From IMG/VR virus record IMGVR_UViG_2675903658_000006: a stretch of 22,483 nt of DNA. One strand, written 5' to 3'. The position numbers are program-made. Positions 15,001-21,000 of the stretch are shown in pieces. Origin of the DNA: a virus. Lineage: Duplodnaviria > Heunggongvirae > Uroviricota > Caudoviricetes. The stretch's first letter is position 1. Every line of letters starts with the position of its first letter.

Positions 15001-18000
15001 TGGTGGTGATGCATGAAAAACAGAAGTGCTTATAAAACCGCATTATTAATGGCTAATGCAGGATACTGGTCAGTTGCAATACTGTTTCTCAGGAAAGCAT
15101 ACGGGAAATAACAAATGACACATGAACCCATTAATACATATCGTCGCCGTATAGCTGTTGCGGCACTCCATCGAATAAAACGTAAAACAGGTGGTAATCT
15201 GCTTATTGTTGACCTTCCGGATGGGAACATTACGACCATAGAAATAACTGAACAGTTTATAAACCAGTTGCTGTTACGCTTCGAAGGTATTACCCGTGGT
15301 GAATTGGGCCGGGTGGAGGGTGAAACCGAAATCCACACTGCATACCAGAATGCTATCGGGATTAATCAACATACTGAATACCTGACTGAAACCGGAAAGT
15401 TAATTATAGACAACCTTTTTCAAGAGGTTATTGATTACGCGAAAGAAAAATATATCAGCGGAGGAATTAACTGATGGCTAATTTATCCCCTGTATCTGTT
15501 GTGCACGAAAAAGTGCAGATCGTTATGACAATTGAAAATGGCCAAGTCACAGGTGTCTGCAAAGTCCGCGATGGCGAGCTGATTGCCAGCATGGATACAT
15601 TCATACGGCTGGCAGAAAGAGCGGGGTATCAGATAACAGCACCTGCTCAGGAGGAAACCGGTGGCATTAACAGCAACACGCATTCCTGAGCGGATCCACC
15701 GGCAGGCATTGCAGGTCCTGTTGTTGTACCGATGCCGACGGATATTTCCGCATCGGATACAGCGCACCGGATATCTCAGTCTGAAGGTTAACCGTCGCTG
15801 GCGGCTGTTATCGAAAGACGACGGCCGGAACTGGGAAGTAATGAGTCATGAACGTTATTCGGGAGAAATAAAGAAATGATCGACAACCGCACCGCCAGCG
15901 CCATTGACCAGGCATTACAGAAACATGATACACCCGTCGGCCCGTTATTTTTTGTAACACGCCACGGAAGAACAAAAAAATGCCTCACCCGAAAAACGGC
16001 AATTCGTTACCTGGCATTCTTTATGACCACCCGCGCTTTTGAACGTTCAGGATTCCGACAACGCTATCCTGACAAGCGTTTTATCTTCAACAGGAATGAG
16101 ATATGGAAACGTGGAGAATCAACCACAGAGTATACCCGCGCACACCAGCGAACAATCAGACGACTGCGCAGACTCATCGCCAGGAAACAGTATACAGAAA
16201 AATGGTTCAGAAAATATGACACATGGAGCGCCGGATATTACGAACTGATGGCAACAAAACCATTCTGACGTAAACGAAATTAACCATGACGCAATTAAAT
16301 AAGGCAAGCCGAATACATCAGGAGGACCATGAACATTTATTTCAGAATAGTTATATCACTGGCAATTATCACATGTATTTACGGATTAATCGTTCCGGCC
16401 CTCATATCAATGAAGGATACGGTAGCAGTGATTTCTGGCTTTGCTCTGGCGTGTCTGACCCCGCCCTGCATTTATGCCATTTATAAGGGTCTTTCTTTTT
16501 CTAAGGATAAAAGATGAAAAAATTACTTTTTGCTTTAGCCCTTGTTCTGCCGACCATTGGCCTTGTCGGTTGCGATCGCGTTGAGCCTGGTAATGTGGGC
16601 ATCAAAGTAAACAAACTGGGCGACGATAAAGGCGTCGGTGAAGTGGTCGGTGTTGGGCGCTACTGGACGGGATGGAACACTGAGGTTTACATCTTCCCGA
16701 CCTTTAAGCAGATGAAGACCTACGATGATCCATTCAGTTTCCAGATGAGTGACGGTACAACCATCGGCTATCACATCGGCGTGGCCTACAAAGTTGATCC
16801 ATCCAAAGTTACCACAGTCTTTCAGACCTACCGCAAAGGCGTGGACGACATTACCGACACCGACCTGCGCCAGAAGATAGCCGACGCACTCAACCGACTG
16901 GCCAGCAAAATGACCACCGACAAATTTATCGACGGCGGCAAGTCTGAGCTGCTGGATGCAGCTCTTAAAGACATTCAGGAAGAAATGACGCCCATCGGTA
17001 TTCAGGTAATGAGCCTCTCATATGTGGGTAAGCCGGAGTACCCGCCTACTGTTATCGACAGCATTAATGCCAAAGTCACGGCCAACCAGAAAACCCTGCA
17101 ACGCGAGCAGGAAGTCAAGCAACGCGAAGCAGAGGCAAACATGCTGCGCGCGGAAGCTGCCGGACAGGCTGATGCGATTCGCACAAAAGCCCAGGCCGAA
17201 GCCGACGCTATTCGTTTACGCGGTGAAGCTCTGCGCCAGAACCCAAACGTTATGGAGCTGGAAGCCATCAACAAGTGGAACGGTACACTGCCGCAATACA
17301 TGACCAGCGGTGCCAACACACCATTTATTCAGGTCAAGTAATACATATGCCCGGTATTACTCGCAGGGCTGTCTGGAGATAAAAATGAATACTGTAACCA
17401 TCAACAACAAACAGTTTCCGGTAATCGAATATCGCAGTCAGCGTGTTGTGACATTTGCAATAATTGATGACGTCCACCAGCGCCCGGAAGGTACCGCCCG
17501 TGCTGCGTTTAACCGCAACCGTTCTCACTTTATCGAAGGGGTGGATTTTCTTGAAATGACTGCGGACGTAATACGTACGGAGTCACTTTCTGATGCCTTT
17601 GCCGCGCGAACTGCCAAAGGGATCATTCTTTTCGAGTCTGGTTACCTGATGTTGACGAAGCCTTTTAACGATGCTCTTGCATGGCAGGTTCAGCGCGAAC
17701 TGGTTAACAGTTATTTCCGAACTCACGCGCCGCTGACGGAAATGGAGATGATCGCTGCAATGGCCGCCGATGCCGTTCGCCAGCAGAAGCGCCTGAGTCA
17801 TGTTGAAGAGAAGATCGAAACGGTCACCAAAGCTGTGGAGAACATCAAACGCGGCACAATGCGCACCGGATATGTCGGTTACCGCCAGGTGGTAGCCAAA
17901 AGCGGAATGAGTGACGCCAAGTGTCGGAATCTGGTCAACGCCTACCACATCCCTACCGACACGCACGAATTTATGACTCCGGACGGTCTGTTGTCTCGCA

Positions 18001-21000
18001 GGGCTGTCGTCGAGCTTGAGACATTTATGGTGGTGTTCCACCAAATGATGTCAGAGGCTGAACCACGCGGCACACGCTGGTATCACCCGAAGATGGGGCT
18101 TTTCCAGGTAATCGGATGGGAGGATAAAGCATGATCATCCAGTCAAAACTTATTCGCGCCGCTCTGGTGTGCGCTGCTAAAAACGACGTTCGTTATTACC
18201 TGAACGGTCTTCACATCACGCCAAAACATATTGAGGCAACCAATGGTTTCGTAGCACTGCGCATGACTCACGGCATCCGGACGAAGAAAAACATCATTGT
18301 CCAGTTCGAAGGTGGCGTCCCGGCCAAAGCCGAAACGACAGAGCTGATTTTTAGTAAAGAGCCGATCGCTGTTCATCGCGACCAGTTTCAGCGCCGACTG
18401 TCCATTACCGGCATTAAACTGGTGGACGGTTGTTTTCCGGATTTGGAACGCATCATTCCGAAAAAATTTGACCTCTGTACACACCCGGTGATCCAGGCGG
18501 GTTACCTGAGTTATCCAGAGAAGATGTTTGGTCGTGAGCGTAAATTTATTCCCGTCCAGTTACGTCCCTCCGGTGACGGGCAAGCGGTCAGAATTCAGTT
18601 TGATTCCATCATCAACTCAATGTATGGCAATCCTGAATTTGTTGTGATGCCTTGTCGTGATCATGGCGATTTCAACGTGGCTCAGGAGCATCCGGAATGA
18701 AAATCGAATACCAGGACTACGGAGCCGTAGCGAACATCGTGATCACCTGCACCGTGTTCGAATTTCGTAAACATAACCGGGTGGTGGATGCTGCATTGCT
18801 TTGTACGCCGGACGTTATTGCAACTCACAGTGGTGTGTTTTTCATGAAGTCGGTTTTATCCGGTAAAACCCGCGATATGTTGCGGGCATATAAAACAGCG
18901 CAGGGAGAGGTCGGGCGTGAGCGGGATTGATTATCAGGCACTGCGTGAGGCAGCAGTAGCAATTGAAACAGTGGCAACGCCTCAAAAATTGCAGGCGTTT
19001 CGGATGAAGGTCACACCGTCGGTGGTACTGGCGCTGCTGGATGAAATTAAGCGCCTGGAGGACACAAATATTGATGCTATGTGCCGAATTGCAGAACTGG
19101 AAGCGAGGGAAGTCGAGTTACCGGATGGCTACGAACCCCGTATGGGCCACCCAATAAATAGCGGTGAGCGGGTGGTAATGATGCCGCACCACTTTGGTGG
19201 ATGGCTGGACCGCTTCGACGTCGAGCACGCATTGCAGGCAGCGGGGATCAAATTCAAAACAGCGGGGGTTGAGTACGAATGATTGAGGGTATTAGCAATA
19301 AATCGTTGAACACAGCATGTGTCGACGGTGGGTTGTTGTACAAAGTGACGTTTACGCAAATCGACAACGAAGATAACGCATTCACTGTGATTTACACGTC
19401 GCCAGCGATGGCGCAGAAGTGGGTGGATCTGCACAGGCTATGTGGTTTTCGTGTTGAGTGGGGGTGCTATGAGATGCGATGCAGATGGCATCATCGGGGG
19501 GATGAAAAATGAGCACTACGCTTGAGCAATGGCTGGAACAGCAGCACGGCAAAATTGATGTTGATTGCGGCTGTGTGAGCACTGAAACGCTTATGCACTG
19601 GATGCGTGTGGCGTATGAGGCTGGCAACTCTCCGGTAACTCCGGAGAGTTGGATAAGCTGTAGTGAGCGAATGCCAGAAATGGGAGAGCGACAATGCTAT
19701 GTGTTAGCTGCTGACTTTAAAAACAACTACCCACCAAACATCCCCAACACTCAGGTCGGCGTATATGGCGACTGGTTTAATGATGGCAAGCCCACTTGGG
19801 ATGACGGTGATGGCGAAGACCTGTATCTCAAGGAGGTAACCCACTGGATGCCGCTGCCAGAACCGCCGCAGGAGGTGAATCAATGAGCTGGCCTGATGCA
19901 ATCGTAACTCTGGGGGTGGTATTCGCAGCAGCGTTTGTTGTGTTCTCGATTTGTCGATGGGGATAACCACATGTTCGCTTTGATTCAACGCGGGCAGATA
20001 TACACCGATAGTGCTGGCTACCCGATAAAAATTGTTCGCTGCATAAACAACACTGTGTTGTACAGAAGAATGGATGGGCGAACACAGTCGGTAAAAATAA
20101 ACGATTTTAATGAACTGTTTGAACGGATCGATCACCAGGAATACCGACAAATTCTGGCAGAAACAGAGCAGGAAGCTCATCTGAAAAAATTACGAGCCAT
20201 GAAAAGGAAGTAAAGAATGAATAAAGCATTTGAACGATGGATCCACCAGCGTTACGGCAATCGCTATGACCTGACACGAGATGTTGACGGTTTCTACTGT
20301 CGTGAAATTGTGAAACGAATGTTTGATGTGTGGTGCCACTGCCGTGGGCTGAGTGTTGTGTGAGGTAAAGCATGGGCAATGTGATTCAACTGGCTCCCAA
20401 TGAATGGGTTTGTGAAAGCGTACTAATCGCAATTACCGGGCTCAAACCAGGCACAATTCTTCGGGCCCGGAAAGAATGCTGGATGGTTGGAAGAGAGTAT
20501 ATTCACGTATCACCAGACGGTAATCCAAAGCCTTCCAGTGAATGTATGTATAACAGAAAAGCAATAGATGCCTGGGTCGCCTCAATGAAAAACAAACAAC
20601 CCAGGTGATTTAATATCATGAAATATGTAAGCTCGTATCGCTCTTGGGCGTCTGGAGGTATCGATGGATAAAGTCAAATATCCAACAGGCGTCGAAAACC
20701 ACGGCGGCACATTACGCATCTGGTTTAATTTTAAAGGTAAACGTGTCAGGGAAAATCTTGGTGTCCCTGACACTGCCAAGAACAGGAAGATCGCCGGGGA
20801 ACTGCGGACATCGGTATGTTTTGCCATCCGCACAGGAAGCTTTGATTATGCTGCACAGTTCCCTGACTCCCCCAACCTTCAGGCTTTTGGGGTAAGTAAA
20901 AAAGAAATTACGGTGAAGGAACTTGAAGAAAAGTGGCTGGATCTGAAACGAATGGAAATCTCTGCAAATGCATTCAATCGCTATGAATCCGTTGCAAGAA

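Follow-up and report, generated by a model that had tools for sequence, protein, structure and literature searches.

A short phage-encoded β-clamp homolog with conserved pocket residues in a lambdoid prophage of Escherichia coli

The mini-clamp gene and its operon

We analyzed the DNA of IMG/VR virus record IMGVR_UViG_2675903658_000006 (Caudoviricetes), a stretch of 22,483 nucleotides that we refer to as the window, and focused on one of its genes, which encodes a 189-residue protein related to the E. coli DNA polymerase III β clamp, DnaN. This gene, which we call the mini-clamp gene, follows a gene for a 249-residue ORF6N-domain protein. The 1,316-bp stretch comprising both genes is present at 100% identity in many E. 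coli chromosomes, occurring in 68 of 5,426 complete genomes, and the window is a lambdoid prophage of E. coli, which in an annotated copy adjoins yecE/yecN. On the plus strand of that copy, a gene for a LexA-family (cI-like) repressor is followed by about 20 small accessory genes and then by xis and int, whereas the replication genes (helicase and toprim), Q, the lysis genes and the head genes run in the opposite direction. Because the module lies between the repressor and xis/int, this synteny bears out its placement in the early-left operon, which had been proposed from the sequence alone. A promoter and terminator scan of positions 13000 to 22483 returned sites no more numerous than in shuffled sequence, none of them flanking the module.

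The original prediction described two coupled open reading frames (ORFs) at 17385-18700, one for a clamp homolog and one for a KilA-N/ORF6N protein. Both ORFs were recovered on the same strand at exactly these coordinates, and Pfam assigns an ORF6N domain to the upstream product. The stop codon of the first overlaps the start codon of the second in an ATGA tetranucleotide, which agrees with the proposed translational coupling. The cluster also extends further than was predicted, as a second ATGA overlap joins the mini-clamp gene to a third coupled gene (Table 1). The 77-residue product of this gene matches phrog_1001 (E = 1.7e-38), and a Pfam search with it gave no match.

The similarity of the 189-residue protein to the β clamp is far beyond chance. 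As a single sequence, it matches the Pfam family DNA_pol3_beta_2 (PF02767) with an E-value of 0.0048 and 17.6 bits, under the family cut-off of 27; TIGR00663 with an E-value of 1.9e-4 and 20.5 bits, far under the cut-off of 137.65; and the E. coli β sequences in the PDB with E-values of 0.002-0.003. A profile built from 21 homologs matches residues 136-289 of the PDB E. coli β sequence at E = 2.4e-13. The AlphaFold model is confident, with a predicted local distance difference test (pLDDT) score of 88.6 and a predicted template modeling (pTM) score of 0.83, and it displays the clamp fold with its β-α-β-β-β repeats. When this model was used as a Foldseek query, all 28 of the top 28 PDB matches were bacterial β clamps, in line with the DnaN-like fold expected from the initial reading.

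Retained and missing parts of the clamp

We next considered which segments of DnaN are represented in the protein. We built a hidden Markov model (HMM) from 144 diverse representatives of the family and scored it against engineered DnaN fragments. A construct spanning DnaN residues 130-366 but lacking 254-315 scored 87.1 bits in a single continuous alignment, compared with 69.1 bits when residues 290-349 were removed instead. Likewise, DnaN 311-366 alone scored 22.7 bits, whereas 245-315 alone scored 3.8 bits. The family consensus eigfnaeYlalaakafk aligns with DnaN EIGFNVSYVLDVLNALK (residues 316-332), and the family ends on the C-terminal DnaN strand VVMPMR. Our first HMMER alignments had placed residues 120-150 on DnaN 258-289, as expected for a protein comprising all of domains II and III; we rejected that assignment, since the deletion constructs fit the second half of domain III better.

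The structural model is consistent with this partition. About 75 residues follow the domain II equivalent, of which about 65 are ordered, too few for a domain, and so only part of domain III is present. Within domain II, just nine residues separate model strands 55-59 and 69-73, which means that the second inner helix is missing. The domain II part carries the motifs DVRYYLNG (R21, Y22, Y23 and L24, equivalent to R152-L155), ATNGF (T37 and G39, equivalent to T172 and G174) and FPDLERIIPK (P103, R107 and I108, equivalent to P242, R246 and V247). The domain III part contains Q122 and Y125 (equivalent to N320 and Y323) and ends in VVMPCR (V171, M173, P174 and R176, equivalent to V360, M362, P363 and R365); it is modeled as strands 120-122, 141-146, 153-157 and 169-172 with a helix at 127-133. 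The C-terminal tail, residues 179-189, has a pLDDT below 50 and is absent in distant relatives, one of which (P0063) stops at VVMPCRL.

The 189-residue protein is therefore composed of domain II without its second inner helix and the second β-α-β-β-β half of domain III, and neither domain I nor DnaN residues ~254-315 have a counterpart. The earlier alignment to domains II-III without domain I was thus correct as to the absence of domain I and the presence of domain II; only the C-terminal half of domain III is there, however, and a domain II helix is gone. Based on standard clamp topology, we infer that the eight-stranded sheet across the II/III boundary is kept whole, together with what is left of domain II, a half-sheet.

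The lost segments include the surfaces through which the clamp closes into a ring. In the β dimer, I78 and F106 pack on I272 and L273, and K74, R96, R103 and R105 pair with E298-E304 (PMC11139829). Every one of these residues falls in DnaN 1-129 or 254-315, both absent from the 189-residue protein, and thus neither of the two surfaces that meet in the head-to-tail interface remains. These losses argue against a closed ring that a clamp loader would place on DNA and that would confer processivity.

The peptide-binding pocket presents a different picture. In DnaN, subsite I of the pocket comprises R152, L155, T172, G174, H175, R176, L177, P242, R246, V247, V360 and M362, and subsite II comprises H175, N320, Y323, V344, M362, P363, M364 and R365 (PMC11139829). 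Across the 144-representative family, conservation is highest at R152, G174 and P242 (0.99 each), followed by M362 and L155 (0.97 each), P363 (0.93), T172 (0.91), H175 (0.90), Y323 (0.86) and R365 (0.81). Ten of the 18 pocket columns rank among the 20 best conserved of 175 (hypergeometric p = 9e-7), and median conservation is 0.83 in pocket columns versus 0.31 in the remaining ones (Mann-Whitney p = 9e-7). In the window protein, 11 of the 18 pocket residues are identical to those of DnaN (R21, L24, T37, G39, P103, R107, Y125, V171, M173, P174 and R176), and an isoleucine, I108, stands at V247. The differences are F40 (for H175), V41 (for R176), A42 (for L177), Q122 (for N320) and C175 (for M364). 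Judging from these residues, the pocket for clamp-binding motifs between domains II and III is retained.

Compared with E. coli DnaN (PDB 1MMI and 2POL), the mini-clamp thus shows homology in both sequence and fold through domain II and the final ~50 residues of domain III, with R152, L155, T172, G174, P242, R246, V247, Y323, V360, M362, P363 and R365 as the shared, conserved pocket positions. It differs in having 189 rather than 366 residues, in the missing domain I, first half of domain III, second domain II helix and dimer-interface residues, in its location in an accessory phage operon, and in scoring below the curated cut-offs. It also differs in charge, as its isoelectric point (pI) is 9.1, with a family median of 8.3, as opposed to 5.2 for DnaN. 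Two conserved lysines are specific to the family: K17, at the position of the DnaN H148 loop, and K131, on the retained inner helix.

Table 1. Features of the coupled gene cluster (positions in the window)
Feature	Position	Strand	Basis
Shine-Dalgarno-like GGAG, 6 nucleotides before the ATG at 17385	17375..17378	+	Read from sequence
ORF6N/antirepressor-like gene, 249 residues	17385..18134	+	ORF, Pfam, PHROG, PGAP, AlphaFold
Shine-Dalgarno-like GGGAGGA within the 3' end of the ORF6N gene, 6 nucleotides before the mini-clamp ATG	18118..18124	+	Read from sequence
ATGA overlap of ORF6N gene stop and mini-clamp start, a signature of translational coupling	18131..18134	+	Read from sequence
Mini β-clamp gene, 189 residues, WP_001553032.1, "beta clamp domain-containing protein"	18131..18700	+	ORF, PGAP
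Codons 1-113, β-clamp domain II (DnaN ~132-252)	18131..18469	+	HMMER alignments, AlphaFold model, residue mapping
Codons 114-178, second half of β-clamp domain III (DnaN ~316-366)	18470..18664	+	Deletion-construct HMM, residue mapping, model
Codons 179-189, variable low-confidence C-terminal tail	18665..18697	+	pLDDT <50, alignment of 21 homologs
Second ATGA overlap, mini-clamp stop and start of the 77-residue protein gene	18697..18700	+	Read from sequence
77-residue protein gene (phrog_1001), third member of a conserved enterobacterial module	18697..18930	+	ORF, PHROG

Family distribution and gene neighborhood

An exhaustive profile search over clusters at 50% identity identified 7,386 cluster representatives at E ≤ 1e-3 and 1,172 at E ≤ 1e-10. 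Nearly all of the top 150 representatives are 165-215 residues long and are matched over their full length, and this steady length indicates that the truncated form is itself under selection. Apparent fusion proteins (P0013, P0035 and P0187) turned out to be frameshifts, start-site choices or unannotated extensions. By tblastn, the family is present in 251 isolated phage genomes, and it occurs on IMG/VR contigs as well. Carriers include Dhillonvirus (BASEL phage Bas14 TheodorHerzl, EP23 and SO-1), Skatevirus and related ~46-kb siphoviruses of Salmonella, Klebsiella and E. coli, BASEL phages Bas77-79, and phages of Vibrio, Shewanella, Pseudoalteromonas, Acinetobacter and Burkholderia. In Salmonella phage Fels-1 (NC_010391.1 2529-2849), only mini-clamp residues 80-187 are matched, at 72% identity and across two annotated hypothetical proteins, and this copy of the gene looks disrupted or truncated.

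Relatives already bear the labels "DNA polymerase III beta subunit," "beta clamp domain protein" and "DNA clamp protein," or, by way of PHROG 3007, "RusA-like Holliday junction resolvase." The match to phrog_3007 is strong (E = 3.7e-65, residues 1-179 on profile positions 3-188 of 190). The resolvase label has spread to many RefSeq and Pharokka-style records (among them NC_025458, NC_054650 and PQ850625), where it is contradicted by sequence and fold. For the window protein, we rejected a RusA identity, as a Pfam scan at E ≤ 1 returned only DNA_pol3_beta_2 and not RusA (PF05866), and the fold is that of a clamp.

Short phage homologs of the polymerase III β subunit were noted in 2011 and described as covering "the second and third domains" (Kazlauskas & Venclovas, PMC3201878). 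The mini-clamp belongs to the same family (PHROG 3007), whose members are ~170-210 residues long, start at domain II, end on the VVMPxR strand and are borne by phages or prophages. The 2011 description differs from ours in that only half of domain III is present. A literature search retrieved no functional study of short phage clamp homologs, in accord with the initial reading, which knew of no characterized equivalent in lambdoid phages. The gene is neither rare nor unannotated, then, being common (251 isolated phages and ~1,170 clusters) and already annotated as clamp-like; it belongs to a widespread and known family that is functionally uncharacterized. Since hundreds of cultured phages carry it, including the tractable BASEL coliphages, and PHROGs-based annotation mislabels it as RusA-like, a clear architecture and hypothesis are useful even though the gene is not new.

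The upstream partner in the window has an N-terminal ORF6N (KilA-N-type) domain at residues 13-92 (PF10543, E = 1.1e-11; the score of 45.3 bits exceeds the cut-off of 27.8), a helical linker and a winged helix-turn-helix-like C-terminal domain at residues ~160-245. The full-length protein matches phrog_1726, "anti-repressor" (E = 3.8e-69), and is named "ORF6N domain-containing protein" by PGAP. Its AlphaFold model, based on a shallow alignment, has an overall pLDDT of 56.8, with the C-terminal domain at 75-93 and the N-terminal part modeled poorly. Foldseek found no significant match for this model, only local resemblance to the winged helices of RacA and Pukovnik Xis (probabilities of 0.5-0.7). 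The C-terminal domain is a generic Ant module (phrog_63) in which the motif RW.HP.[MF]G.F, reading KMGLF in the window protein, is kept between two subgroups that are only ~30% identical. KMGLF might serve as a clamp-binding motif, albeit weakly supported: it is conserved, yet it is predicted with confidence to form a strand (238-240) of the folded domain rather than a flexible tail.

We then compared gene neighborhoods in 106 loci holding a short family member, which provided 105 upstream and 103 downstream neighbors; the locus search was seeded with the alignment of 21 homologs, and the sample is therefore biased toward close relatives, mainly enterobacterial prophages with 70% or more identity to the query. 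The upstream neighbor falls in 75 of the 105 cases into a single cluster whose members have the C-terminal domain of the window ORF6N protein, joined to an N-terminal domain that is either ORF6N-type or Rha-like, and in 67 of the 105 it overlaps the mini-clamp start by 4 nucleotides. Downstream, a 73-77-residue protein is encoded in 56 of 103 loci, with a 4-nucleotide overlap in 50. Given the makeup of the sample, inheritance may explain much of this shared gene order. Both the ORF6N coupling and the 77-residue partner are conserved only among close enterobacterial prophage relatives, and the Ant-like upstream and 77-residue downstream partners are thus specific to that branch of the short homologs.

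Distant members have neither partner. One lies at the end of a rightward block with a DnaB-like helicase, a methyltransferase and NinB, next to genes without a known domain; another is directly upstream of Dam; and another shares a small operon with a ParB-like protein gene and, in some cases, a methyltransferase gene. The Dhillonvirus member is a lone reverse-oriented gene amid structural genes. The window prophage and Salmonella phage Skate encode no polymerase or clamp loader of their own, whereas the Dhillonvirus carrier TheodorHerzl encodes a family-A polymerase. The original prediction had also raised a defense or counter-defense role, for which PADLOC offered no support, returning no match for the ORF6N protein, the mini-clamp, the SPFH protein described below, the 77-residue protein or the Ea22-like protein.

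Clamp-binding motifs were sought by a regular-expression scan of phage neighbors, covering the genes to the right of position 9901 in the window. A 119-residue protein (15115-15474, plus strand, phrog_1737) has the sequence QLLLRF, which fits the clamp-binding consensus QLxLxF perfectly; its gene lies no more than 5 kb from the mini-clamp gene in 71 of 106 loci. We rejected this candidate because ~0.3 chance matches are expected, the glutamine varies among 58 homologs, and the segment resembles an amphipathic helix (LLxRFE). A motif scan found no clamp-binding motif in the Dhillonvirus polymerase, helicases or SSB.

Two other genes of the early-left operon deserve mention. A 275-residue SPFH/Band-7 protein (16514-17341, plus strand) is the product of a gene in the same operon that ends 43 nucleotides before the ORF6N gene starts; it carries a lipoprotein-type signal peptide (MKKLLFALALVLPTIGLVGC), matches Pfam Band_7 (E = 8e-31) and falls in phrog_200, "lipoprotein." PGAP further annotates a 72-residue ParE-family toxin-like protein (15661-15879, plus strand), which among PHROGs matches only phrog_1525 and for which an adjacent antitoxin is not evident in the annotation.

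Candidate functions and other features of the prophage

The β clamp is the central hub of bacterial replication and repair and an antibiotic target. Many host proteins use its pocket (PMC11139829), and RecB is now among the users known from the literature. We tentatively propose that the 189-residue protein is a non-ring, "pocket-only" clamp derivative with affinity for clamp-binding motifs, functioning as a decoy or adaptor toward clients of the host clamp, an account that we consider plausible while stopping short of calling it probable. The sheet kept across the II/III boundary would present on its face the hydrophobic pocket for QLxLF-type motifs; closing the ring and lining the DNA channel are tasks of the lost pieces, namely domain I, the first half of domain III and the inner helix. 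The mini-clamp belongs to the early-left operon of a phage that replicates with the host replisome and, once expressed, would bind such motif peptides away from the DNA-encircling ring and without a clamp loader. For carriers that lack a polymerase and a clamp loader, the partner would have to be a host protein; candidate clients are Pol II, Pol IV, Pol V, MutS, MutL, Hda, the δ subunit and RecB. From what is established about these clients, those with a single motif (Pol II, Pol IV, Pol V, MutS, MutL and Hda) would be easier to compete away than the multiply tethered Pol III core.

The broader generalization, that short phage clamps form a widespread class of decoys titrating clamp-binding-motif proteins (translesion polymerases, MutS/MutL, Hda, RecB and the δ wedge) off the host β ring, strikes us as somewhat unlikely. 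If decoys they are, replisome-borrowing phages would keep SOS-induced or repair factors off their own replicating DNA, a takeover by mimicry of a hub rather than by its inhibition. With a natural, stable and soluble pocket-only fragment, phages would have a new kind of tool to rewire that hub, and the mini-clamp would provide a handy minimal scaffold with which to study or screen pocket ligands.

Several observations weigh against a decoy or adaptor. The window protein has changed at three pocket positions (H175 to F40, R176 to V41 and L177 to A42), and the conservation of the pocket is in part a matter of ascertainment, since the same residues are the best conserved in full-length DnaN and helped to recruit the family. 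For a phage that depends on Pol III and the clamp loader, a general decoy could be detrimental. The family-A polymerase of Dhillonvirus carriers means that the role may differ between lineages, and the basic character of the family fits direct DNA binding as well as, or better than, a soluble decoy.

This last point leads to the main rival, namely that the protein is a loader-independent processivity or tethering factor, which binds DNA directly in the manner of herpesvirus UL42/UL44 or forms an odd homo-oligomer (for example, four copies of 1.5 domains) and uses the pocket to hold host Pol III or the Dhillonvirus family-A polymerase on phage DNA. High pI in clamp homologs from systems lacking clamp loaders has been linked to direct DNA binding (Kazlauskas & Venclovas, PMC3201878), an argument that applies to the basic mini-clamp and is joined by the family-specific lysines, the conserved pocket, the polymerase encoded by some carriers, and the DnaB-like helicase, primase, methyltransferases and ParB-like protein often found near distant members. 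We nonetheless consider a tether unlikely. One of the two domain II inner helices and half of domain III are gone; monomeric β binds DNA yet cannot make Pol III processive (PMC11139829); the Dhillonvirus polymerase and helicases gave no motif in our scan; and the distribution is patchy, and the gene often has no place in the replication module, being surrounded by accessory genes in the window prophage and standing singly amid structural genes in Dhillonvirus. The conserved gene order would instead be accounted for if the mini-clamp were a scaffold internal to its module, binding the Ant-like C-terminal domain, the 77-residue protein or both in one complex (such as a DNA-bound regulator or a replication-interference complex) without involving host clamp clients. 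The shared upstream C-terminal domain with its exchanged N-terminal domains, the recurrent overlaps on both sides and the persistence of KMGLF across divergent subgroups all point this way, as does the literature finding that clamp-binding motifs are not strictly dependent on glutamine. We regard the scaffold as improbable, however, because the gene order may be plain inheritance among closely related prophages, distant family members occur without either partner, the C-terminal domain is a generic Ant module, and KMGLF lies within a predicted strand.

Host replication might also be stopped outright if the mini-clamp trapped the clamp loader by binding the wedge of the δ subunit (HolA) through subsite I. 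The δ subunit docks L73/F74 in subsite I and binds monomeric β ~50-fold more tightly than the dimer, and its secondary contact is a 5-residue loop of β for which no position is given (PMC11139829). Conservation of the subsite I residues in the family is compatible with such a trap, and an overexpressed phage clamp can be toxic, as with mycobacteriophage Waterfoul gp48, although that is a full-length clamp of 376 residues outside the mini-clamp family. The secondary contact loop presumably lies at ~274-278 of β and would then be in the deleted segment, which tells against a trap. Phage N4 gp8 is said to achieve a comparable shut-off of host replication. Carriers without a replisome of their own need the host clamp loader, however, and we judge a loader trap to be quite improbable.

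The original prediction raised the possibility of a two-domain clamp that forms a PCNA-like homotrimer or poisons the host clamp, as it might by co-assembly with host β in the ring. The E. coli β* protein (Skaliter, Paz-Elizur and Livneh, 1996) is reportedly a UV-inducible 26-kDa internal product of dnaN that comprises domains II and III, forms a trimer and stimulates Pol III. It resembles the mini-clamp in lacking domain I and in starting near DnaN ~135, close to the point (residue ~132) at which the DnaN homology of the mini-clamp begins. β* is said to keep all of domain III, however, whereas the mini-clamp has lost the half that bears the interface. With just 1.5 domains, the protein does not have the two full domains that a PCNA-like trimer (three times two domains) calls for, and co-assembly with host β is unlikely because every interface residue named in PMC11139829 lies in a lost segment. 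Given that both partner surfaces are deleted, neither arrangement seems more than barely credible to us.

Other known systems offer partial parallels to the mini-clamp. One is the engineered I272A/L273A β monomer, a non-ring clamp with an intact pocket that binds DNA and, ~50-fold more tightly than the dimer, δ (PMC11139829); it differs in being a full-length, three-domain protein and is unable to support processive synthesis. Twort Gp168 (PDB 7EVP) is likewise a phage protein acting on the β-clamp network, but this small, unrelated protein works by plugging the β DNA channel, and Mu MuC exploits the network by carrying a clamp-binding motif that binds host β. The mini-clamp is on the opposite side of the interaction from these two, being itself a clamp fragment that bears the pocket.

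The remainder of the prophage has two further features. A 1.3-kb IS3-family insertion sequence at 8592-9901, flanked by 25-nucleotide terminal inverted repeats (TGAACCGCCCCGGG...), lies within a toprim/primase-like gene and encodes orfA (9521-9847) and orfB (8634-9524), both on the minus strand. It splits the host gene into halves at 8085-8558 and 9899-10366, and the window copy of the prophage is therefore probably replication-defective; the element is absent from the otherwise 99.9% identical prophage copy in NZ_CM165900. Just downstream of the Q antiterminator gene, at the position occupied by Shiga toxin in Stx phages, are two minus-strand genes (~5364-5789 and ~5922-6650, coordinates inferred from 9293-10579 of the annotated copy). 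They are annotated as a subtilase-family AB5 toxin binding subunit and a scabin-related ADP-ribosyltransferase, and the two have the look of an AB5 toxin pair of the pertussis-like or ArtAB type.

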